From Acidobacteriota bacterium (GTDB lineage Bacteria; Acidobacteriota; UBA4820; DSQY01): a stretch of DNA of 64,000 bases. The notes beneath the pieces were generated by a model, which was given only the letters and a program-made list of their open reading frames with translations, made no database searches and was not told where the DNA came from. Shown piece by piece: positions 29,370 through 41,063 of this stretch (positions within the stretch are counted from its first letter, which is position 1; every line of letters begins with the position of its first letter). The position numbers and the translations under genes are program-made. The stretch covers positions 96,001 through 160,000 of the forward strand of contig JBMFSH010000002.1 in assembly GCA_049967655.1 (NCBI GenBank). The letters run 5' to 3'.

Positions 29370-29639
29370 ACCGCGGCGCATTCCAGGAGACAGGGAACGT
29401 GAGGGCCATCACAAAAGCCCCTTCCAGCAAGCTTCCAGGCTTGCATCGCTGGAAACGCCGCAATACACTGTATTTGAATGTCATTTTTCCGCCACGAGAG
29501 GAGTCTGCTCGCAATTCCCCGGGAGGCGGCATGAGGAAGGCCCATGGATCAAAGACCATCCCCATCAACCCGTGACCCGGCCTTGCACCGTGAGCGGAGA
29601 CCCGGACCGATAAAACGCAAGCCGGGCTCGGAGGAAATC

Positions 29640-32600
29640 ATGGAACAGATCAAAGGACGAGCGGGCACGGAGTTTCGGTGTCTGCTGCTGGCGTTGGCTT
29701 GCCTTCCCCTTCTGCACGCCATTCCCGCGCGCGCCTCGGGGTCAACGCCCCTTTCCGCCCAGGCGGGCCCGCGGCTGGAGAAGGCCTTTGGAGCTATCCC
29801 GCTGCATTTCGAGCCCAACCGGGGGCAGAGCGATCCTCGGGTCGAGTATCTCGCCCGCGGGCGCGGCTTCGGCCTCTACCTCACCAGGAGGGGGGCGACC
29901 CTCGTCCTGAGCGCGCCGACAGGCGAGTCGGCGCGGGGCTCCCGGCGGCCTCCCCGGGATACCCGCCCGCATGTCCGCTCCACGATCCGCATCTCTCTGG
30001 AGGGCGGCAATGCGGCTCCCGCGCTGGTGGGCCTCGACCGCCTCGCCGGCACCTCCAGCTACTTCCTGGGGAACGACCCCTCGCGGTGGATTAGGGCCAT
30101 CCCCACCTTCGGGCGCGTCGCCTGCAAGCAGGTCTACCCGGGCGTGGACGTGGTTTACTACGGGGCCGGAAGGGCCCTGGAATACGATTTCCAGCTTGCC
30201 GCGGGGACGAATCCCCGAACGATCAGGCTCCGGTACGACGACGGGGCGGGGAACCCCGTCCCCTTGCGGGTCAGCCCCAGCGGTGATCTCCTCCTCTCGA
30301 CTCCCTTCGGTCGGCTCGTCCAGCACGCCCCCGCCGTCTTCCAAATGCGGAACGGGGAGAAGAACATGCTCTCCGGCCACTACGAGATCCTGGGACCGGG
30401 GCGCGTGGGACTGGTCGTGGCCAGTTACGACGCCTCTCGCCCGCTGACCATTGATCCAATTCTTAGCTACTCCACCTACCTGGGCGGCAGCGGCCAGGAT
30501 CAGGCGGCGGGCATTGCGGTGGATTCCAACGGGAACGCCTACGTGACCGGCTCCACGCAGTCCACCGATTTCCCCCAGGCCAGCGATGCGCCGAGCGGAG
30601 GATGGGACGCCTTCGTGACCAAGTTCTCTCCGGACGGCAAGAGCCTCCTCTACTCCATCTACTTCGGGGGGAAGGGGGATGACCTGGCCCACGCCATCGC
30701 CGTGGACTCCTCAGGTGACGTGACCATCGCCGGCCAGACCACCTCCTACGACCTGCCCGTCCTCAAAGCGTTCCAGCCCACCCACGCGGGGACCGCGAGC
30801 TCTGCTAACGAGGATGCCTTCATCGCCGAGTTCGGCCCCTCCGGCACGGCGCTTCTCTATTCTTCTTACCTGGGCGGCTTCGGGGATGACGTGGCCACGG
30901 CCGTAGCCCTCGATGCCGCAGGCGATGCTTTCGTGACGGGGTACACCTATTCACCCGATTTCCCCGCCTCTTCGAACGCCGACCAGCCGGCCTACGGTGG
31001 CGCCGGCGACGGGTTCCTTTCCGAGGTGGCAGCGGGCGGGAACAAGCTCCTCTACTCCAGCTTCCTGGGGGGCGAAGCCTACGACGAGGGGCGGGGCATC
31101 GCGGTGAGCACCGACGGCCACGTGTTCGTCACGGGCGACACCTCGTCGGTCGCCTTCCCCATTCTCAACGCCTATCAGGCCCAGCTCGCTGGAGCCAGCG
31201 ACGCCTTCGTCAGCGCCTTCGATTTCAGCGGTGCCACCGGCACCAGCCCCGGTCAGGTGATCTACTCCACCTACTTGGGGGGCGCCGGCAGCGACGCCGG
31301 CCTGGCCGTCGCCGCCGACGCGAGCGGGGACGCTTACGTAACGGGCTACACCTATTCGACTCACTTTCCAACCAGCCCCGGCGCCTACCAGAGGGCCCTC
31401 ACCGCCGGCCAATCGGCCGACGCCTTCGTAACGGAGTTTTCGCCGACGGGCGGCTCCCTGGTCTACTCCACCTACCTCGGGGGTTCGGCCTTTGATGCCG
31501 CCTACGCCATTGCCTTGGCCAGCGACGGAAGCGCCTGCGTGGCCGGGGATACCTATTCCACCGACTTCCCGGTGGCATTCCCCGTCCAGGCGGCCAACGC
31601 CAGCGCCTCCGCCGGCAACAGCGACACCTTCGTGAGCAAGTTGTCGCCTTCTGGCTCGGCCCTCTCCTTCTCGACCTATCTAGGCGGAAGCGACACGGAC
31701 CAGGGCCGCGCCATCGCCCTGGATTCCTCCAACAACATTTACGTGGCAGGGACCACCTACTCCAGCAACTTCCCGATGCAGAACGCCTTTCAGAGCGTCT
31801 CCCACGGAGCGGGGGACGCCTTCGTTTCCAAGATCCTTCTGGCCGGCTGTACCCTCACCTGCACCGCCGTGGCCTCACCCGGCACCGGTGCTGCCCCTCT
31901 CCCCGTCACCTTTTCGGCTACCGCTACCCCGAGTAGCTGCGGAAGCGGCACCGTGGCCTACGACTGGAATTTCGGCGACGGCACACCCCACGCAAGCGCG
32001 CCGAATACCAGCCACACCTACCTCCAGCCGGGGAGCTATACCTGGACGCTGACCGTGAGCCTCGACGGCACCACTTGCACCCAGAGCGGCTCCATCGTGG
32101 TCACCCCCGGCTGCACCGTGAGCTGCTCGGCCAACGCCACCCCCACGGCGGGTCCGGCGCCGCTGGCCGTGGCTCTCACCGCTTCCGCCTCCTCCTCGGA
32201 CTGCGGAGGGGCCGCCACCTACCTCTGGAACTTCGGTGACGGCTCGGCCGCTTCCACGGCGCAGAACCCGAGCCACACCTACCTTCAGCCGGGCACCTAC
32301 ACCTGGGCCGTGACGGCCACCATCGCCGGCAGCACCTGCACCCAGAGCGGCTCGGTGACGGCGCTGGCGACCCCGGGAAGCCTTTCGGGCATGGTGGCCA
32401 TCTCCGCGGGAGACCAGTTCTTCTCCCTCGACGGGCCCGGCATCGTCTCGGGCACGGTCACGGCGGTGGACTCCGCGGGCAACGCGACGACGGCGCCTCT
32501 GTCGGGAGGCCACTTCTCCTTCTCGGGGCTCGCCCAGGGGAGCTACCAGCTCACCGCCACGGTGACCTACACGGACAACGTCCTCTACGACGCCGATCTG

Positions 32601-35360
32601 CTGAGCTACGGTTGTACGGCGCCTTCGGGCATGCAGATTCAGAAGACGGCCATCTCTGCGCCGGTCGCCGTGGACACCTCCAATACCGCCTACGTGGTGG
32701 TCTCCTTCCCGCCGCCGCTGGTCATGATTCACGGCATGTTCGACTGCTACCAGAAGTGGTACGACCCCAACGCCTCGGACTCCAACGCCGCCCTTTACTG
32801 GGACAACGACGCGAGGGCCCACGGCCTCATCAGCTTCACGCCGAACTACGCCTGGTGGGGAGGGATCTCGAGCTGGCCCACCATGGCCGACGAGGTGGCC
32901 CAGCAGATCGGGCAGGACCTCTCGGGACTGAGCTCCAGCGGCGCGGGAACGGGCTCCGCAGTCCCGCCCATCCCCACCGTCTGGATCGCCCACGACATGG
33001 GGGGCCTCGTGGCACGGGTGCTGGCCTCGGGGGACCACCGGAACGACGTGCTGGTGCAAAACGTCTGGAAGATTTACCTGCTCGGCGTGCCCAACAGCGG
33101 CACGAACCTCCAGCTGGCGGGGAGCGACAACGGCACCCTGAGCACCGACACCATCCTGCGGCGCTTCAACGCCGTCTATCCCGACTTCGGGAGCCTTCAG
33201 GGCCGGGTCTACGCCATCGCCGGGGACAGCGGCCTGTGGGGGCTCCAGAACGATGACGGGCTGGTCTCTCTGGCCTCGGCCTTCACCATCTCGCGGGAGC
33301 TGTGCACCACGACCTTCGGCTACCCCGTCTGCCAGCAGTACCCCGCCGTCAGCTTCGCCGCCGGGACCGGCCACATCTTCGGTTACAGCCACGCCGATCT
33401 GGGCGGCCCCGCCTCGGCGAAGGCCATCCTGGAGGGGGTCATCCTGCCCGGCGTCGCGGCGCTGGCCAAGAGCGGGCCGCTTCCGGAACACGTGCCGGAG
33501 AGTCCCGCGGGCACTACGGTCTGGGGCACCACCAGCCGCACGTCGGGAACCAAGAGAGGGCGCATCAAGGCCACCCTCAGCCGCTCGGAGGCGGGCCAGT
33601 CCTTCTCCTACCCGTTTACCATCGGAGAGACCGACGGCATGGCCCTGCTGGCCACGGTCACCGACGGCTCCGCCGCTTTCCAACTGCTCGACCCCACGGG
33701 CCAGGTGGCGCAGAGCAGCCCCTCGGTGGACGGCCTCTTCTCCTTCTCCACCCTCAACCCGGCCCCGGGCGCCTGGACGCTCGTCGTAACCCCCGGCGGC
33801 TCGGGGGTCTCCTTCACCGCCACGGCGCAGGAGGACAGCCCCTTCGGCATCCGCGGGAGCCTGGATGAGAGTGCCTATCTCCCCAACTCCACGGCGGTCC
33901 TGAGGGTGGACCTCGAGGGCAGCCTCAAGGTGGTGCCCGCCTCGGTGACGGCCAGCATCTACGACGGCTACGACAACCTGATCGAGACCGTTCCTCTTTA
34001 TGACGACGGCCAGCACGACGACGGCGCTCCGGGCGACGGCGCCTACGGTGCCCTCCTCGCCGCCTTCACGTCGCCCGGCTCTTACCCCGTCGTCTTCACC
34101 GCCACCGGCTCCTACCAGGGCGAGGCCTTCTCCCGTCTCGCCTTCGCCACCCTGACGGTGGTGCCCTCCACCCACCTGCTGACGGGCGCCTTCGCCCTTT
34201 CGCCCGTGAGCCAGAGCGGCGGGGGCCCCACGGACGCCATCCAGATGACCGCCGGCGTCAACCTGCCGGCGGCGGGGAGCTACGCCCTCTCGGCGGACCT
34301 GCTGGATGCGGGGGGCCTCTTCGTGGCCCACGCCTCCACGGCGCTCACGGCCACGGCGGCGGGCCTCACAACCGCGACCCTGGTCTTCCCGCTGGACGGC
34401 GCCACGTGCAGCCAGCTCGATGCCCCGCTGACGGTGGCCGGCCTTCAGGTCCTGGATGGAACCACCCTGACGCCCGAGGACGTCTGGGGTTCTCCCATCT
34501 ACACCCCTGCCTACCCCTCCGGCACCTTCTCCTGCCAGAGCGGTACCCCCGAGCCCACGCCCACGGCTCTCCAGCCCTCCCAGGCCGTGACGGGCACCTC
34601 CATCAGCCTGCTGGTGGCGGGCACCGGCTTCCAGGGCGGCGCCACGCTCACCTTCGATTCGGGCATTCAGGTCAACAAGGTCATCGAGCTCTCGCAGAAC
34701 CTCCTTTCGGCCTCCGTCACCGTCCTTTCGAACGCGGCTGCGGGCGGCCACACGCTGACCGTCACCAACCCCAACGGCACTTCGGGGAACCTGGTCTCGG
34801 CCCTGACGGTCACGCCGAACCAGCCGCCCGCCGTCACCCTCTTGACCCCCGCCAGCGGAACGAGCTACTTCAGCTCCTCCCCCACCCAGGTGAGCGTCTC
34901 GGCCTCCGCGAGCGACGACATCGGAGTCACCCAGGTGGTCTTCCTGCTGGACGGAGCGCCCGAGGCCAGCGTGAGCCAGTTCCCGTTCATCTGGAGCTTT
35001 CCCTCCTCCGTTCTGACCCACGGCGCCCATACCCTGACGGCCGTGGCCTACGACACCAGCGGCCTGACCGCCCAGGCCTCCGTGACCATCTACAAGGACC
35101 CGCCCACCGTCACGGCCATCAGCAAGCTGATCAACCCCTTCCGCCTGAAGGTCACGGGGACCAACTTCCTCCCGGGCCTCTCGGTCACCATCGGGAGTGA
35201 CACAACCCCCTGGCCCGGCGTGACCGTCAAATCGGACACCAAGCTGATCCTCAAGAAGGGGGCCCGCCTCAAGGCGCTCTTCCCGAAGGGGCAGGCCGTG
35301 TCCATCCGCATCGCCTACCCCGATGGCACGCAAGGAACGGCCAGCTACACCAGGCCCTGA
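29640..35360 (+). CDS. Large secreted multidomain protein: SBBP propeller repeats, 2x PKD, alpha/beta-hydrolase-like domain, Ca-binding LYDDG motif, IPT/Ig domains
   Basis: GGAGG RBS, signal peptide ending ARA, FEPNRGQ, repeated YSTYLGG...DAFV, WNFGDG x2, IHG...AHDMGG...DGLV...H, LYDDGQHDDGAPGDG. Confidence 0.88.
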   Translation: MEQIKGRAGTEFRCLLLALACLPLLHAIPARASGSTPLSAQAGPRLEKAFGAIPLHFEPNRGQSDPRVEYLARGRGFGLYLTRRGATLVLSAPTGESARGSRRPPRDTRPHVRSTIRISLEGGNAAPALVGLDRLAGTSSYFLGNDPSRWIRAIPTFGRVACKQVYPGVDVVYYGAGRALEYDFQLAAGTNPRTIRLRYDDGAGNPVPLRVSPSGDLLLSTPFGRLVQHAPAVFQMRNGEKNMLSGHYEILGPGRVGLVVASYDASRPLTIDPILSYSTYLGGSGQDQAAGIAVDSNGNAYVTGSTQSTDFPQASDAPSGGWDAFVTKFSPDGKSLLYSIYFGGKGDDLAHAIAVDSSGDVTIAGQTTSYDLPVLKAFQPTHAGTASSANEDAFIAEFGPSGTALLYSSYLGGFGDDVATAVALDAAGDAFVTGYTYSPDFPASSNADQPAYGGAGDGFLSEVAAGGNKLLYSSFLGGEAYDEGRGIAVSTDGHVFVTGDTSSVAFPILNAYQAQLAGASDAFVSAFDFSGATGTSPGQVIYSTYLGGAGSDAGLAVAADASGDAYVTGYTYSTHFPTSPGAYQRALTAGQSADAFVTEFSPTGGSLVYSTYLGGSAFDAAYAIALASDGSACVAGDTYSTDFPVAFPVQAANASASAGNSDTFVSKLSPSGSALSFSTYLGGSDTDQGRAIALDSSNNIYVAGTTYSSNFPMQNAFQSVSHGAGDAFVSKILLAGCTLTCTAVASPGTGAAPLPVTFSATATPSSCGSGTVAYDWNFGDGTPHASAPNTSHTYLQPGSYTWTLTVSLDGTTCTQSGSIVVTPGCTVSCSANATPTAGPAPLAVALTASASSSDCGGAATYLWNFGDGSAASTAQNPSHTYLQPGTYTWAVTATIAGSTCTQSGSVTALATPGSLSGMVAISAGDQFFSLDGPGIVSGTVTAVDSAGNATTAPLSGGHFSFSGLAQGSYQLTATVTYTDNVLYDADLLSYGCTAPSGMQIQKTAISAPVAVDTSNTAYVVVSFPPPLVMIHGMFDCYQKWYDPNASDSNAALYWDNDARAHGLISFTPNYAWWGGISSWPTMADEVAQQIGQDLSGLSSSGAGTGSAVPPIPTVWIAHDMGGLVARVLASGDHRNDVLVQNVWKIYLLGVPNSGTNLQLAGSDNGTLSTDTILRRFNAVYPDFGSLQGRVYAIAGDSGLWGLQNDDGLVSLASAFTISRELCTTTFGYPVCQQYPAVSFAAGTGHIFGYSHADLGGPASAKAILEGVILPGVAALAKSGPLPEHVPESPAGTTVWGTTSRTSGTKRGRIKATLSRSEAGQSFSYPFTIGETDGMALLATVTDGSAAFQLLDPTGQVAQSSPSVDGLFSFSTLNPAPGAWTLVVTPGGSGVSFTATAQEDSPFGIRGSLDESAYLPNSTAVLRVDLEGSLKVVPASVTASIYDGYDNLIETVPLYDDGQHDDGAPGDGAYGALLAAFTSPGSYPVVFTATGSYQGEAFSRLAFATLTVVPSTHLLTGAFALSPVSQSGGGPTDAIQMTAGVNLPAAGSYALSADLLDAGGLFVAHASTALTATAAGLTTATLVFPLDGATCSQLDAPLTVAGLQVLDGTTLTPEDVWGSPIYTPAYPSGTFSCQSGTPEPTPTALQPSQAVTGTSISLLVAGTGFQGGATLTFDSGIQVNKVIELSQNLLSASVTVLSNAAAGGHTLTVTNPNGTSGNLVSALTVTPNQPPAVTLLTPASGTSYFSSSPTQVSVSASASDDIGVTQVVFLLDGAPEASVSQFPFIWSFPSSVLTHGAHTLTAVAYDTSGLTAQASVTIYKDPPTVTAISKLINPFRLKVTGTNFLPGLSVTIGSDTTPWPGVTVKSDTKLILKKGARLKALFPKGQAVSIRIAYPDGTQGTASYTRP
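31850..32362 (+). repeat. Two tandem Cys-containing PKD repeats (~85 aa each)
   Basis: Near-duplicated segments: WNFGDG...SHTYLQPGxYTW...TCTQSGS, also similar at DNA level; boundaries approximate. Confidence 0.8.
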
Positions 35361-35385: not shown

Positions 35386-35415
35386 GGGGCGGCCTCCAGG
35401 CCGCCCCCCTTCTTC
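35386..35415 (+). terminator. Hairpin terminator after the large secreted-protein gene
   Basis: GGGGCGGCC-loop-GGCCGCCCC followed by CTTCTTC. Confidence 0.65.
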
Positions 35416-35428
35416 ATCCCCCCGAAGG

Positions 35429-35581
35429 TGTCACCCTGAGATCACCCCCCAGAGGGCTCCCCGGAAAGGGCCTCAGGCGTGGAACCCGCAGAAACCGCCG
35501 TGAAGGCTCCGCTGGCGTTTTGCCTAGACCAGCGCCTGAGGTCCTTCAGGGGCACTGCTTCGAAGGGGCCTTCAGGATGAC
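35429..35581. repeat. REP/MITE-like long imperfect palindrome
   Basis: Outer arms GTCACCCTGA / TCAGGATGAC; inner arms AAGGGCCTCAGGCG / CGCCTGAGGTCCTT. Confidence 0.6.
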
Positions 35582-35617
35582 GGGAAAGCGGACGGGCGGA
35601 TCGGGAGCGGATCTCCC

Positions 35618-35653
35618 TTGACAAGACGTGGGGGGGGGGGGGGGTGGTAGCCT
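35618..35653 (+). promoter_or_regulatory. sigma70-like promoter with G15 tract in the spacer
   Basis: TTGACA (35618-23), G15 (35630-44), extended -10 TGg-TAGCCT (35645-53); spacer 24 nt as assembled. Confidence 0.6.
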
Positions 35654-35679
35654 GGAGCCGTCTTGAAAGGAGGTGTTCG

Positions 35680-35757
35680 ATGGGCACGATCCTCTTCCTC
35701 ATCACGGTCCTGGTCTGTTCTCCTGCCGGCGGCACTATCTGGGGCACGACGACCTGA
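35680..35757 (+). CDS. 25-aa small peptide MGTILFLITVLVCSPAGGTIWGTTT
   Basis: AAAGGAGGT RBS 5 nt before ATG, mostly G/C-ending codons, upstream promoter and downstream hairpin; below the ORF-track size cutoff. Confidence 0.75.
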   Translation: MGTILFLITVLVCSPAGGTIWGTTT

Positions 35758-35776
35758 ACGGCACCGGGATCCGAAG

Positions 35777-35807
35777 CCCAGGGGGGCCCAGGCCGGGTTT
35801 CCCTGGG
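35777..35807. terminator. Hairpin between the convergent peptide and cyclase genes
   Basis: CCCAGGGGGGCCC-AGGCC-GGGTTTCCCTGGG, pairing with G-U on the + transcript; weak U-tail. Confidence 0.5.
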
Positions 35808-35823
35808 GCTCTTCCCTCCCGTG

Positions 35824-38800
35824 TCATCCCGCAGGCCCCTCGGCCCGAAGCGCCCGCACCTCCGGGAGAGCGGCCAGGGCTTTTCGGATGGCTGGGTCGC
35901 TGTTTCGCGCTTCCACCTCTTTCAACAGATCCAGCGCGGCTTTCCGCCAAAAAGCGGCGCTTCTCGCCTTTCCGCTGTTCATCGCGGCTAGCCGCCGGAG
36001 CATGCGGTACCTGATTCCCATGAGGCCCCGGTCCAGTTTGGGACCATAGGGCCTCAGGAGAGCCATCAGAGAGGCAAGGTACTCTTTGTCGTTGCTGGCG
36101 ATGGCGACTTGGGCCACCGTGAGCAAGAGCGGGGCGACTTTCAAGACCGAGCGATGCTTCGCTACCTCTGGTAGGAGCCGCCGTGCGATCGCGGCAGCAA
36201 CTTCATGGCGGCCTGCCTCCCATAGAGAGCGAACCAGGGTCTCCCCCACCTCGGCCGTGAGCCAGAGGGTCCCGGTCAGGGAGGCCTCCTCCAGACATCG
36301 CTCCAGGGCCTCCCTCGCATCTTCGAAGCCAGTGTCTCCCATGAGATGGAGCCAGAGAGCCCGTTGCGCGCGAAAGCCGATGGACCAGGCCTTTTCAGTG
36401 TGAACGAGCTCCGCCGCCACGACCGGGCTGCCCTCCTCCATGGCGGCAAGGGCCAGCTCTGGCCGATGCAGGTGGTTCGCCAGCGCCACGATTTCATTGA
36501 GGCAGGCGAGAGCCTCTCCCGTGTTGCCTCCCTGCACGTGAAGGCGCATGGAATCGGTCTGATTCTCCAGGGCCATTTGCAGATGCCCGCTCACAGCGTG
36601 AAGAATGCCTGAAGTATGGAGGTTCGCGGCACAATAATGCTGCATACCGAAATGAAGCGCTGTTGCGAAAGCCAATCTGCTCGCCTCCATAGCTTCATCC
36701 CACTGGCCGAGCATGGTCTGGTAGAGAGCGCGGTTCGACAGCAGAACCACATACAACTGACGGTAGCCAAACTGTCTGGCAATTACTGTAGCTTCCTCTA
36801 CCATACCGAGCGCCTTCCGGTAGCGCCCCTCCTCGAAATGAACCTGGGCAAGGTTGATCGAAAGGGAGACCAGGTTCGGCCGAAGGGCGTAGCGCTCCGC
36901 CGTCCGGCGCGCTTTCCGGTAGGCGGAAGCCGCCGCCCCGAGATTGCCCCAACCATGGTAGTGGCACATGCCTTGGTTCATCAGCGCGTACACCAAGGAG
37001 CTACCCTCAGCCAGCTTCCTAGCGAGACGCTCCGCCTGTTTGAACTGCTCCATGGCCTCGTCCATGCGGCCTGACATGGCCAACGGAACGGCCGAATCCA
37101 AGAGGATCCGGCATCGAAGCTGGTCGTCCCCCAGCTTCTTCGCTAGGCTCATGGCCCGGTCATATTCCTGGATGGACGCATTGAGCTCGCCACGGCTTCG
37201 ATGACATCCTGCCACGTGCATGCGTGCATCCACGAGCTCGGGGCATAGTGTGCCGGTCTCCTGGATGATCTGGCGGCATCTGGCTTCGGTCTCGTCCAAT
37301 CTTCCCAAGTCCTTGCTTGTCTTGGCGAGCTCCATTAGGCCTCGACGATACTGTTCGTCCTCGCCGGCCGAGACGCCGTGCTTCTCTCGCAGTCGGATGT
37401 ATCGCTCCAATAGGTTGAACGCCGCGCCGTTGTCGTAGCGGTTGCGGGCGTCCTGGGCGGCGAGCCAGAGGTAGTGGGCGGCTTTCACGTCGTCGCCGGC
37501 GGCCTCGAAGTGGTGGGCTAGGTAGGGCCACGTCCGGCGGTCGCCGGCGGCCTGCTCCTCCAGGAAAGCGGCGACCTGGGCGTGCACGGCCCGCTTGACC
37601 GAGAAGGTGAGCGACTCGTAGAGGGCATCGCGCAGGAGCGAGTCGGAGAAGGTGGCGTAAGGGCGGCGCCCCGAGGCGTCCAGGCGCAGGAGCCCCTTCT
37701 CCGAGAGGGCCCTCACCCGCCCCTCGACGTCAAGCGCCTTCAGCCCCAGGACCCTGGCCAGCAGGCTGACGGAGAAGGAGGCGCCTAGCACGGAAGCCGT
37801 CTTCAGAAGCTGGCGCTCCTGATCGGGAAGGCCCTCGACCTGGGTCAGGAGCACGCCCTCGAGGGTGTCCGGGAAGGCCGAGGCCGTCAGGCGGTCCTCG
37901 TCCGCCTCGAGGAGCCCGGAGGGGCCCCGGGCCAGAAGACCCTGGTGGGCCAGCACGGCCAGCACCTGCTGGATGAACTTGGGGTTGCCCCGCGTCTTCT
38001 CCATGACGAAGCGGGTGAAGGCCTCGGGGGGCGCGGCCATGCCGCCGGCCCGCATCAGGAACTCGCGCGCCTCCTCCTCGCTCAGCGGTTCGAGGCGGAC
38101 CGTCCGAAGGCCGGCCACCGCCTCTCCCACCGACGCGGGGGCGCTGGTGCGAAAGGCCAGGAGAAGCTTGAGAGGGGCCTGCTCCAACTCGGCCAGAAGG
38201 GCCGCCAGGAACTCCAGCGAGGCGGGATCGGCGTGCTCCAGGTGGTCCACGAAGAGGCCGTACGGCTCCTGCGCGGCCTGACGCAGGAAGAGCCGGGCCA
38301 GCATGGCGAAGGCGGCCTCCTTGCGCTCCTTGGCAGAGAGGGCCTTGACGGCGGCCGTCTCCTCCATGGCGACACCCAGGAGGGGCGCCAGGAGGCAGAG
38401 GAAATCCGGGTCCTCGTGAGCCATCCCCTGCCGGAGGGCCTCGAGGCGCAGGGCCTCGCCGGAGGTGCGGCTCACGCCCAGAGAGGAGAAGAGCACCGGC
38501 GTCCAGGCCGAGAGGTAGCTCTCGCTGCTGTAGGGGACGAGCGGCACCGTGATGTGGCGGATTCCCGCCGCATCCAGCCCCAGCCCGAGCCGGTGCAGGA
38601 GGGCGCTCTTCCCGACCCCGGCCTCCCCCGTCACGGCCAGCGCCAGAGGCTTCGACGGATCGGCCAGGAGCGGTCCCAGCTCCTTGAGCAGCTCCTCCCG
38701 CCCCACGTACTCCGCCAAGCGCTCCTCCTCCGCCTGCCGCTCGCCCTCGGGCCTGAAGACGCGCACCCGCTCGCCGATGCCCTTGACGAAGACGGGGTCC

Positions 38801-40008
38801 AGCTCTCGGAAGACAAGCGCCCCGTCGGCCTCTGCGGCCACCTCCCTGGCGACCAGGACCCGCCAGGCGTGGGCGTTCTGCATCAGTCGGGCCGCCAGGT
38901 TGATGCCGGCGCCCATGACCGTGTACTCCCGCCGCTCCTCGCAGCCCACGAAGGCCGCGAAGAGCCCGGAGACGGTGATCCCGATGCGGACCTCGGTGAG
39001 GAGTTCTCGCAGAGCGGCAGAGCCGACCAGCTCCAGGGCCGCCCGGCAGGCCATCTCCTCCTGGCGCTCCAGGGCGTAGGGAACGCCGAAGCAGCAGATC
39101 GCCTTGCTCCCCTTGTCGCCCATGTCCAGCTTGTTCACGTGGCCGCCGTACTTTCGAACCGTTTCGGCGATGATCCGGTAGACCCGGCGGCAGCGGTCCA
39201 CCGCTTCGGAGTCGAGGTCGTAGTCGATGCCCCGGAAGGCGAGGAACAGGACCGCCGTCCGCCGGTGTTCGGCGACGGTCTGGCTGCGGCCTGTCCCAGC
39301 CCTGGCTCGGACGAAGGCTGGGAGGAAGGCTTCGAGACTCTCCCGGCTGGGTAACGGCGGGCTGGCGTTGGCGGAAGGTTCGGGAGGCCGGTGAAGCCCA
39401 TCGAAGCCCGCGAGAAGCAGGAAGCCGTCGCCGGCCTCCTCCACCCGGCAGCCGATCGGGAGGCCGGCCCGGCAGGAAGGCCCCAGGAGGATCCGCCCCC
39501 GCGAGGCGCGGTGCTCCGCCTCCGCCGCCTCGTCCAGGGCCGTGCCGGCGGCGAAGTAGTCGCGTCCGACCTCCTGGTCACCCACCGTACCGATCAGGAG
39601 GGAGCCGATGGAGATGCCCGTCTTCATGGCGAGCGAGAACTCGCCCCCGCGGGTGGGAATGGACTGGAAACGGCCGATCTCCTCGTGCATCCGGAGTGCG
39701 GCCCGCAGCGCCCCCGACAGGTCCGGAGGGAAGAATAGCGTCATCGCATCGCCACCGAATCGGAGAACGTCTCCGCCCTCCTCGTGGACGATCGCGATCA
39801 TGGCCGCGAAGAAGTCGTTCAGAACGCGGGTGAGCTCCTCCGCCCCCTCCCTCCCGATGGCCGCCAGCCGCTCGGTCATGGCCGTAAAGCCGGCCAGGTC
39901 AGCGAAGAGCAGGCATCCCTCCGTCCGCTGGGCACCCCCCGTGGAGCCCAGGAGAGGCCACAGACTCCTCGGCACGAAGGCGGTCAGATCCCGTCTGAAA
40001 TTGCTCAT
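35824..40008 (-). CDS. Tandem class III adenylate/guanylate cyclase + STAND-type ATPase + TPR protein (soluble-AC-like)
   Basis: LLFADLAGFT and RFGGDA (C1); KLDMGDKG and YTVMGAGINLAAR (C2); GEAGVGKS; TRGNP; LRDALY; helical TPR-like C-terminus. Confidence 0.92.
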   Translation of the reverse strand: MSNFRRDLTAFVPRSLWPLLGSTGGAQRTEGCLLFADLAGFTAMTERLAAIGREGAEELTRVLNDFFAAMIAIVHEEGGDVLRFGGDAMTLFFPPDLSGALRAALRMHEEIGRFQSIPTRGGEFSLAMKTGISIGSLLIGTVGDQEVGRDYFAAGTALDEAAEAEHRASRGRILLGPSCRAGLPIGCRVEEAGDGFLLLAGFDGLHRPPEPSANASPPLPSRESLEAFLPAFVRARAGTGRSQTVAEHRRTAVLFLAFRGIDYDLDSEAVDRCRRVYRIIAETVRKYGGHVNKLDMGDKGSKAICCFGVPYALERQEEMACRAALELVGSAALRELLTEVRIGITVSGLFAAFVGCEERREYTVMGAGINLAARLMQNAHAWRVLVAREVAAEADGALVFRELDPVFVKGIGERVRVFRPEGERQAEEERLAEYVGREELLKELGPLLADPSKPLALAVTGEAGVGKSALLHRLGLGLDAAGIRHITVPLVPYSSESYLSAWTPVLFSSLGVSRTSGEALRLEALRQGMAHEDPDFLCLLAPLLGVAMEETAAVKALSAKERKEAAFAMLARLFLRQAAQEPYGLFVDHLEHADPASLEFLAALLAELEQAPLKLLLAFRTSAPASVGEAVAGLRTVRLEPLSEEEAREFLMRAGGMAAPPEAFTRFVMEKTRGNPKFIQQVLAVLAHQGLLARGPSGLLEADEDRLTASAFPDTLEGVLLTQVEGLPDQERQLLKTASVLGASFSVSLLARVLGLKALDVEGRVRALSEKGLLRLDASGRRPYATFSDSLLRDALYESLTFSVKRAVHAQVAAFLEEQAAGDRRTWPYLAHHFEAAGDDVKAAHYLWLAAQDARNRYDNGAAFNLLERYIRLREKHGVSAGEDEQYRRGLMELAKTSKDLGRLDETEARCRQIIQETGTLCPELVDARMHVAGCHRSRGELNASIQEYDRAMSLAKKLGDDQLRCRILLDSAVPLAMSGRMDEAMEQFKQAERLARKLAEGSSLVYALMNQGMCHYHGWGNLGAAASAYRKARRTAERYALRPNLVSLSINLAQVHFEEGRYRKALGMVEEATVIARQFGYRQLYVVLLSNRALYQTMLGQWDEAMEASRLAFATALHFGMQHYCAANLHTSGILHAVSGHLQMALENQTDSMRLHVQGGNTGEALACLNEIVALANHLHRPELALAAMEEGSPVVAAELVHTEKAWSIGFRAQRALWLHLMGDTGFEDAREALERCLEEASLTGTLWLTAEVGETLVRSLWEAGRHEVAAAIARRLLPEVAKHRSVLKVAPLLLTVAQVAIASNDKEYLASLMALLRPYGPKLDRGLMGIRYRMLRRLAAMNSGKARSAAFWRKAALDLLKEVEARNSDPAIRKALAALPEVRALRAEGPAG

Positions 40009-40150: not shown

Positions 40151-40936
40151 TCAGGGATTGGGCGGCGGAGGGGATCCCGAGACCGATTGCGTGTAGGCCA
40201 GCAGGAACCGCCTGGCCTCGGGGTTCATTTCCAGAAAGACGATTCCGTAACCGGCCCTGGTCTTCCGCACCACGCGGGCCTTGAATTCCACGACCTTGAG
40301 CGGTACCGTTCCCGGCATCCCCACGCGCAGGCTGACCATGGCCTTGTGCGGAAGCTCTTCAACCAGCGCCACTTGGGCTCCGGTCAAAGAGATGTCGCGG
40401 AGCACCCCGCGCAGCTTCTGCCCTCCGCCCGACAGCAGGCATGCGGCCTGGAGGTTGCGCCGCGGCGCCCTTCGCAGGTCCCAGCTCGCGGAGCCTTCAT
40501 CGGTCTGGCTTTCTACCAAGCCCGGGGGAGGCGGCCCCGGGGGCGGCTTGCGGGGGGTTTCCGCATGGAGGTTGCCCAGGAGATGGACCAGCGAGCTTTC
40601 CAGCTGGTTCCTCCGGACGGGCTTGGTCAGGACGATGGTGTGGCACCCCGTCGACGCCTCCACGTTCATCCCCTCTTCCGTGAGAATGAGGACGGAGAGG
40701 TCACCAAAGGCGGCCTCGGAGCGGAGCGCGCTCAGCATCCGAAAGCCCCCGACGGTGGGAAGCGAGAAGTCGATCACCAGAAGGTCGGGGGGGCCCGAGA
40801 GATACATGGCCTGGATGGCCGACATGTCGCTCGCGAAGACCTGGCAATTCAGGCGCGCGCCGCCCAGCCCCTCGAAGGGATCGGTGAAAAGCGACAACTC
40901 CGCTTCGGCCAGAACGGCCGACACTCGGTACGACAT
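40151..40936 (-). CDS. Atypical receiver + PilZ domain protein
   Basis: PDLLVIDFSLPTVGG, LTKP, Pro-rich linker, RRAPR and DISLTG PilZ motifs. Confidence 0.82.
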   Translation of the reverse strand: MSYRVSAVLAEAELSLFTDPFEGLGGARLNCQVFASDMSAIQAMYLSGPPDLLVIDFSLPTVGGFRMLSALRSEAAFGDLSVLILTEEGMNVEASTGCHTIVLTKPVRRNQLESSLVHLLGNLHAETPRKPPPGPPPPGLVESQTDEGSASWDLRRAPRRNLQAACLLSGGGQKLRGVLRDISLTGAQVALVEELPHKAMVSLRVGMPGTVPLKVVEFKARVVRKTRAGYGIVFLEMNPEARRFLLAYTQSVSGSPPPPNP

Positions 40937-41063
40937 CTGTCCCCGCCCTGCTGGGCCGCCCATCTAGACGATGCGGCAACCCATCCGTTCCTTAATGCCG
41001 TCTTATTTTATCACGGGCGGCGCGGGGAGGGAACGGGACGAGGCCGGCCGGCAAAACCCGATG

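Follow-up and report, generated by a model that had tools for sequence, protein, structure and literature searches.

A twelve-residue motif common to giant secreted proteins and small peptide genes is linked to cyclase-STAND-TPR genes in one order of Acidobacteriota

In a 64,000-nt stretch of an Acidobacteriota genome (contig JBMFSH010000002.1, positions 96,001 to 160,000; hereafter the window), a gene for a 25-aa peptide lies convergent with a gene encoding a tandem cyclase-STAND-TPR protein, and we found that the tail of this peptide recurs within the giant secreted protein encoded upstream. The motif, P-x-[ASG]-P-x5-WGT, occupies an interdomain linker in 23 of the 24 giant open reading frames (ORFs) that are convergent with a cyclase-STAND-TPR gene in one Acidobacteriota order; these are the large ORFs facing the cyclase, window included, counted at 20 loci around the best cyclase matches. 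The sole exception, L049, belongs to a third cyclase clade. Judged from the sequences, the association of the peptide motif with the cyclase-STAND-TPR gene goes far beyond what chance would give, and we regard the linkage as real: a system of three parts, confined to one lineage and with an unusually clean signature in the genomes, for which the mechanism put forward below is a proposal. The locus is pointing to an undescribed way of sensing a piece of the cell's own surface protein.

The peptide gene (35680–35757, forward strand) encodes MGTILFLITVLVCSPAGGTIWGTTT, i.e., a hydrophobic leader (aa 1–13) followed by the 12-mer tail SPAGGTIWGTTT. Its Shine-Dalgarno sequence, AAAGGAGGT (35666–35674, +), is kept in G001, G002 and L163, and its stop codon lies 66 nt from that of the convergent 1394-aa cyclase ORF (35824–40008, reverse strand); in ORF, ribosome-binding site, gap and domains, the initial annotation of this convergent arrangement was right. 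Among named records, the nearest are from Acidobacteriota. What it overlooked is that the same motif, PESPAGTTVWGT, is present in the upstream giant protein (aa 1318–1329; 33495–33530, +), in the linker after a hydrolase-like domain. The embedded stretch, PESPAGTTVWGTTS, and the peptide tail are identical at 9 of 12 residues. When the pattern [SA]PxGxx[IVLTAG]WGT was searched in six frames of the 3.1-Mb genome, it matched only twice, at the giant copy and at the peptide gene, the expected number of chance matches in the 500-nt gap being about 1e-4. The conserved element is the whole P-x-[AS]-P-x5-WGT rather than the TIWG tail singled out initially.

Two types of giants bear the motif. Type A, to which the protein of the window belongs, is built of SBBP/PKD or He_PIG, hydrolase-like and Big_7 domains, and type B of Vps10/BNR, PPC and TIG; in BLAST, the giant of the window showed no similarity to those of type B, and the two types face two separate cyclase clades, A and B, in a tree computed as a quick version only. 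A profile built from the 23 embedded motifs (threshold E<1e-5) matched in 19 of 29 genomes of the order, all of them among the 20 that have a clade A/B cyclase; the only such genome missed is 73% complete, and its cyclase is cut by a contig end. No match was obtained in the nine remaining genomes of the order, which have no clade A/B cyclase, or in 12 genomes outside it. Because 16 of the 19 positive genomes had supplied rows of the profile, G007, G021 and G023 are the only new ones, and related genomes do not count as independent. The core of type-A giants was matched in 17 of the 29 genomes, two of the matches being weak and partial; the remaining 15 genomes are exactly those that possess a type-A cyclase, which the giants face. 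Two orphan type-A-core paralogs, with no cyclase in the 17–19 kb around them, lack the motif where their linker aligns. Distant cyclase-STAND-TPR loci (Chloroflexota, Zixibacteria and others) gave no match to the motif profile, and among 46 distant cyclase loci with downstream DNA none has such a peptide, one having an unrelated hydrophobic ORF. From 1.84 billion representatives, a 36-row profile retrieved 26 proteins, of which two are small precursors with two motifs each and the other 24 are type A/B giants or pieces of such giants; the motif profile is so short that diverged forms would escape it. A DNA pattern search proved too loose, with many out-of-frame matches (a loose genome regex gave hundreds of shadow-frame matches), and was replaced by the protein profile. 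Up to four motif-bearing giants stand in tandem before one cyclase in G025:C31 (L046, L252), L041 and L038.

This distribution bears on the possibility that the motif serves the giant itself, as a cleavage, sorting or modification site or as a latch, that the small peptides titrate the enzyme reading it, and that the cyclase senses something else via its distal TPR, like an Avs-type receptor. In type B giants the motif opens a shared C-terminal module, and the distal TPR is hypervariable, mosaic, low in GC content at third codon positions (GC3) and unrelated to motif identity, all of which would suit such a role, as would weak PycC matches. Yet orphan giants with the same core have lost the motif, unrelated giant families share it only beside the cyclase, no conserved third gene was seen, and PADLOC returned no Avs model for the cyclase-STAND-TPR protein, only weak PycC and TPR matches. 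We consider this explanation unlikely.

Free copies of the motif delimit its extent. Six short genes carry it (in the window, G001 and G002, two in G021, and one in G017/L163), and three precursors of 167–176 aa carry it twice, once directly behind a signal peptide and once at the end. Of the latter, P0040 is encoded in G007; P0061 and P0071 are known without gene context, and an ESM Atlas search with P0061 gave nothing above 0.79. All nine free precursors have the motif beginning at [AS]P directly after the hydrophobic leader. In eight of them the end lies at WGT+2, and these limits define the 12-mer. The short peptides match the type (A or B) of their neighboring giant: in G021, MVSITIAVLVFIGCSPVGASIWGTGA is encoded beside a type-A giant and MVEVILLAVMVSALAPKGSVIWGTVL between a type-B pair. 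None is identical to the motif of its own giant (7–9 of 12 residues), and one G021 peptide is identical to the giant motif of another strain (L164). A search of NCBIfam found no family for the 25-aa peptide or for the two-motif precursor. A lipoprotein reading of the leader Cys was rejected, as there is no canonical lipobox and one peptide has no Cys.

It had been suggested initially that peptide and cyclase form a quorum-sensing-like pair and that short ORFs would adjoin homologous cyclase genes. The peptide is indeed tied to the cyclase gene, with similar genes beside other members, but a free gene occurs in only 3 of the 24 intergenic regions examined against the motif in 23 of 24 giants, and the system is not a two-gene pair. 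Among three genomes of the same genus, start, ribosome-binding site, frame and stop of the peptide gene are kept in G001 and G002; no peptide gene was found in the third, G003, or in L161 of the same genus-level group. In G009, a -35 box abuts a terminator where the sister G017 has the cassette, i.e., a deletion scar, and the orientation of the peptide gene differs between genera; in G017 and G021 it follows the receptor on the same strand. On the grounds of the 3 of 24 intergenic regions, the G009 deletion and the differing orientation, we regard the small gene as accessory and the embedded motif as the core. That the locus is an RRNPP-like pair with the free peptide as primary ligand is, in our estimate, quite improbable, for the embedded motif is nearly universal while the small gene is missing, deleted or inverted in the relatives named. 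Speaking for it are the same-strand arrangement just described, the fact that substitutions separating the peptides of sister species fall mostly in the 12-mer, and the small gene, adjacency and TPRs, which correspond to three of five RRNPP criteria (PMC10075063, accessible part). The criteria given in that part include a propeptide of 10–100 aa, a Sec signal or SHP-type leader, a receptor of 250–500 aa with TPRs, and adjacent genes. Here, the peptide has 25 aa, the TPR-bearing receptor is encoded 66 nt away, and the receptor comprises 1394 aa with cyclase and STAND; because its size and build differ, we place the locus outside RRNPP. Similarly to PrgX with cCF10 and iCF10/PrgQ or to Rgg/SHP, as far as the accessible descriptions go, a cytoplasmic TPR receptor is encoded beside a short hydrophobic peptide gene. 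In contrast to them, the receptor combines STAND and a tandem cyclase and has no helix-turn-helix domain, the host is a diderm, the small gene is optional, and the candidate ligand is embedded mid-protein in unrelated giants.

The peptide gene is preceded by a promoter-like element (35618–35653, +) with a -35-like TTGACA at 35618 and a -10-like TAGCCT at 35648, 24 nt apart across a G15 run. It is probably length-variable, as the spacer between the boxes has 24 nt in the window, 19 nt in G001 and 15 nt in G002. A consensus promoter scan listed no promoter for the peptide gene, the box spacing as assembled being non-canonical. Runs of at least 15 G/C number only three in the genome and TTGAnn-polyG-TAnnnT sites five, of which the three looked at in detail precede small secreted-peptide or RiPP (ribosomally synthesized and post-translationally modified peptide)-like genes; the poly-G design also precedes motif genes in G017 and G007, there upstream of P0040. 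Poly-G promoters seem to be the organism's switch for small secreted peptides, and the peptide-gene promoter may be phase-variable. DNA contigs of relatives cover the cassette piecewise, one with 10 bases fewer in the G run, which is too thin to show phase variation. Elsewhere, a TTGACA-G16-TAATCT promoter was noted at G000:C47 near 11934 (−; L287) before a 74-aa Cys/Ser/Thr-rich precursor, which we take to be RiPP-like with a double-glycine-type leader, and an A8-G11 promoter at G000:C11 near 62482 (+; L288) before the gene of a 68-aa secreted Cys-rich peptide. Between the convergent stops, a hairpin (about 35777–35807, no strand assigned) forms with ordinary energy (z -1.44); it is kept with changes in G001 and G002 and is not among the terminators listed by a scan of the window. 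Of the self-contained unit described initially, ORF and ribosome-binding site stand, while the promoter is non-canonical and the hairpin ordinary. Non-canonical promoter spacing and a short, hydrophobic product might be expected if the small ORF were left over from the giant gene and not translated, or if its product were a type I-like membrane toxin that has nothing to do with the cyclase. We hold this to be extremely improbable: own leader, ribosome-binding site, promoter and WGT+2 stop recur in six genes of two genera, the codons of the motif differ from those of the giant gene's copy, and a toxin role would not need the motif.

The convergent gene, the only full-length cyclase-STAND-TPR copy in the genome, encodes two Guanylate_cyc stretches, AAA_16 and TPR_12, arranged as a tandem class III cyclase (38758–40008, −), a STAND NTPase module (AAA_16, Walker A GEAGVGKS) with the following helical region (37432–38709, −) and a TPR solenoid (aa about 860–1394; 35824–37431, −) with a hypervariable distal part of lower GC. 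The best PDB match of the cyclase part, and its closest solved relative, is human soluble adenylyl cyclase (sAC; E 1e-27). Residues D37, D87, K293, T363, N370 and R374 align to D47, D99, K334, T405, N412 and R416 of 4clf, the metal Asp pair and the adenine-type Lys/Thr/Asn/Arg, and are invariant or nearly so in 32 sequences. Because these residues align with sAC, the protein is, by its catalytic signature, an sAC-like tandem class III adenylyl cyclase with cyclic AMP (cAMP) as its predicted output; of the cAMP/cGMP output proposed initially, cGMP was ruled out on K293/T363. K95 and R176 of ADCY10, the bicarbonate residues, align to R83 and A162, i.e., the bicarbonate pair is not kept. The C-terminal 615 residues were modeled as a TPR solenoid (pLDDT 92), closest to peptide-binding LGN/Pins solenoids among the Foldseek matches listed; no RRNPP chain was among those matches (ranks 1–50 with gaps, of 500). 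In comparisons within the genus, identity is about 90% for cyclase and STAND and 40–48% for the distal TPR in 9 of 10 pairs; the distal part is a mosaic with GC3 of 0.68–0.75 vs. 0.83–0.94. N860, N1011, N1052, R1083 and E1172 are conserved across clades A and B, and in 11 type-B pairs motif identity correlates with the proximal TPR at rho 0.43, vs. 0.09 for the cyclase. Complex prediction of the TPR region (aa 787–1391, 24-row alignment) with the giant's 30-aa motif stretch scored 0.03 with unfolded controls and speaks neither for nor against binding. The P0006 and P0007 cyclases share 90–92% of catalytic-part residues with the cyclase of the window and 54–56% of those in the proximal TPR, a pattern suggestive of sensor swapping.

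We favor, at about an even chance, the reading that the embedded motif is a TPR ligand cut from the giant and that the small gene is a switchable second source or competitor. In such a scheme, the giant exported protein, which carries the 12-residue [AS]P-x-G-x3-WGT-xx in a Pro-rich linker, would be cut there and trimmed to an X-Pro end, freeing a 12-mer with the same ends as those given by the free-peptide genes after leader loss. The 12-mer would then enter the cytoplasm, probably via an oligopeptide ABC importer (three SBP_bac_5 genes in the genome were counted toward import), and bind the conserved proximal TPR groove. As is known from STAND biology, binding would switch the STAND module and hence the sAC-like cyclase, and the change in cAMP would report export, shedding or attack on the surface protein of the cell or its kin. 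The 25-aa gene may be accessory and, switched by its poly-G run, supply a 12-mer that differs slightly and sets the threshold as agonist or competitor, the two 12-mers being SPAGGTIWGTTT and SPAGTTVWGTTS. PrgX likewise receives peptides of two origins: one is released from a larger exported protein, the other is the product of a short gene nearby, and iCF10 competes with cCF10 at PrgX. ABC permease genes (BPD_transp_1) adjoin the type-A giant gene in one genus (L246 3223–5312; L037), outside the window.

Several points weigh against this reading. Its support is genomic association among kin, from which we infer translation, cleavage, import and binding, and no protease gene was found to travel with the unit. 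The Asn ladder (N860, N1011, N1052) is of a kind generic in TPR_12 repeats. The distal TPR does not change in step with the motif: between G001 and G003 the motifs are identical at 46% distal-TPR identity, and the simple pherotype co-variation with the distal TPR sought as a check was not seen. The correlation between motif and TPR is modest and confounded by descent, and among 14 type-A pairs the motif correlates with every domain to a similar degree, with the cyclase domain at 0.73. By eye, the short peptides have an uncharged 10–11-residue hydrophobic stretch and no basic n-region, which makes their export uncertain, and the third cyclase clade, three proteins of 1250 aa, faces giants that have a C25-like domain and lack WGT.

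The uncharged hydrophobic stretch would also agree with a guard or checkpoint working from inside, in which the TPR reads the motif, with no release and re-import, on giant precursor that either stays in the cytoplasm because stress or phage blocks its export or arrives from a neighbor, and the 25-aa peptide is an inner-membrane protein with its tail inward, a tethered tuner or decoy. This would explain the same motif-cyclase linkage without outer-membrane passage, and STAND-TPR sensors bind whole proteins according to the available part of one report (10.64898/2026.01.04.697583). The two-motif precursors, however, look like Sec substrates with ordinary signal peptides, and the placement of their motif immediately after the probable cleavage site favors a ligand that is exported and has its N-terminus exposed; we judge the inside guard fairly unlikely.

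In the third clade, the giants' linker has a same-register form, P-I-A-P-x5-[VI]-P-T-V, found after the fact. A regex for the PIAP-type linker holds in 17 of 120 homologs, all among the closer ones; distant third-clade giant homologs have another conserved segment at this position. This form is a lead only, and it can be read against a universal WGT ligand. In one genome outside the order, a third-clade-type giant directly precedes a cyclase gene, and at L293, L295, L259 and L302 third-clade cyclases are paired with C25-like/Kelch/TIG giants with a variable PIAP-x5-[VI]PTV linker. A bolder version of the ligand reading, possible though doubtful, is that an NLR-like sAC-type cyclase of a diderm is switched by a cryptic 12-mer cut from any of several unrelated giants, with a tag version of its own for each receptor clade (WGT in A/B, the same-register FIPT/MIGT form in C), and that part of a population could send out the signal or interfere with it by means of poly-G-switched small genes and two-motif precursors, forming a damage- or kin-peptide pathway with cAMP output.

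Several known systems share parts of this organization. Human ADCY10, with the domain order cyclase-STAND-TPR, and bacterial sAC-like SWACOS STANDs have the same metal Asp pair and K/T/N/R residues; unlike in ADCY10, the bicarbonate pair is not kept here and a candidate ligand is encoded next door. With Avs and other bacterial NLR-like STAND-TPR receptors, as described in the accessible part of 10.64898/2026.01.04.697583, the protein shares the effector-STAND-TPR layout and a fast-changing sensor end, yet its candidate ligand is self-encoded and its predicted output is a second messenger. It does not qualify as Pycsar, which pairs a PycC cyclase with a cNMP-binding effector encoded nearby: the best PycC match (46.5 bits) covers the cyclase fold only, and the neighbors are a REC-PilZ gene and the giant protein. 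The TOMM kinase/cyclase fusion family TIGR03903, by name tied to peptide (TOMM) systems, has a homologous cyclase-STAND-TPR stretch (169 bits), but this score is far below the cut-off of 705.75, Pfam finds no kinase, and no modifying enzymes lie nearby. BASS amyloid motifs, going by part of their description, are short motifs common to neighboring genes at a bacterial NLR locus (10.1101/2020.01.06.895854); in contrast, the STAND protein here is without a motif copy (the motif profile gave no match to cyclase ORFs), and the motif is Pro/Gly-rich and in exported proteins. SWACOS are mentioned in 10.64898/2026.01.04.697583, PMC13236601 and PMC7159879, the accessible parts of which hold nothing resembling this unit, and no description of such a unit was found in the open literature, subscription papers lying outside the search.

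Neither was any ligand for the cyclase-STAND-TPR class found in the open papers searched. The 12-mer is a defined, synthesizable candidate ligand for this receptor class, kin of human sAC, and a single protein, a single peptide and a measurement of cAMP would suffice to test activation. If the proposal is true, intracellular peptide sensing would extend from the RRNPP regulators of Firmicutes to NLR-like enzymes of diderms, signals would be hidden inside giant surface proteins, where small-gene screens miss them, and the locus would be a model of how ligands control STAND cyclases of the sAC type.

The giant gene of the window (29544–35360, +; 1938 aa, probable start at 29643) encodes, in order, DUF7948, an SBBP propeller, two PKD domains, the alpha/beta-hydrolase-like domain with AHDMGG, the motif linker and Big_7, and is closed by a terminator-like hairpin (35386–35407, +; z -3.27). 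In its hydrolase-like domain (window about 33000, giant aa about 1150), AHDMGG has Asp in the nucleophile position, as a regex found for 5 of 10 type-A giants, and the domain could process the linker; a single-sequence fold of the giant's middle part was unusable (pLDDT 35). A palindromic repeat unit of ~170 nt lies between the giant and peptide genes (35420–35590) and also in L031 (7872–8204), and in G001–G003 several copies flank a 100-aa ORF that looks GIY-YIG-like. Type-B cyclases are split into separate frames in L289 (G005:C23) and G021:C117, by decay or assembly error. Directly upstream of the window's cyclase, on the same strand, lies the REC-PilZ gene (40151–40963, −), through which a link to cyclic di-GMP is possible.

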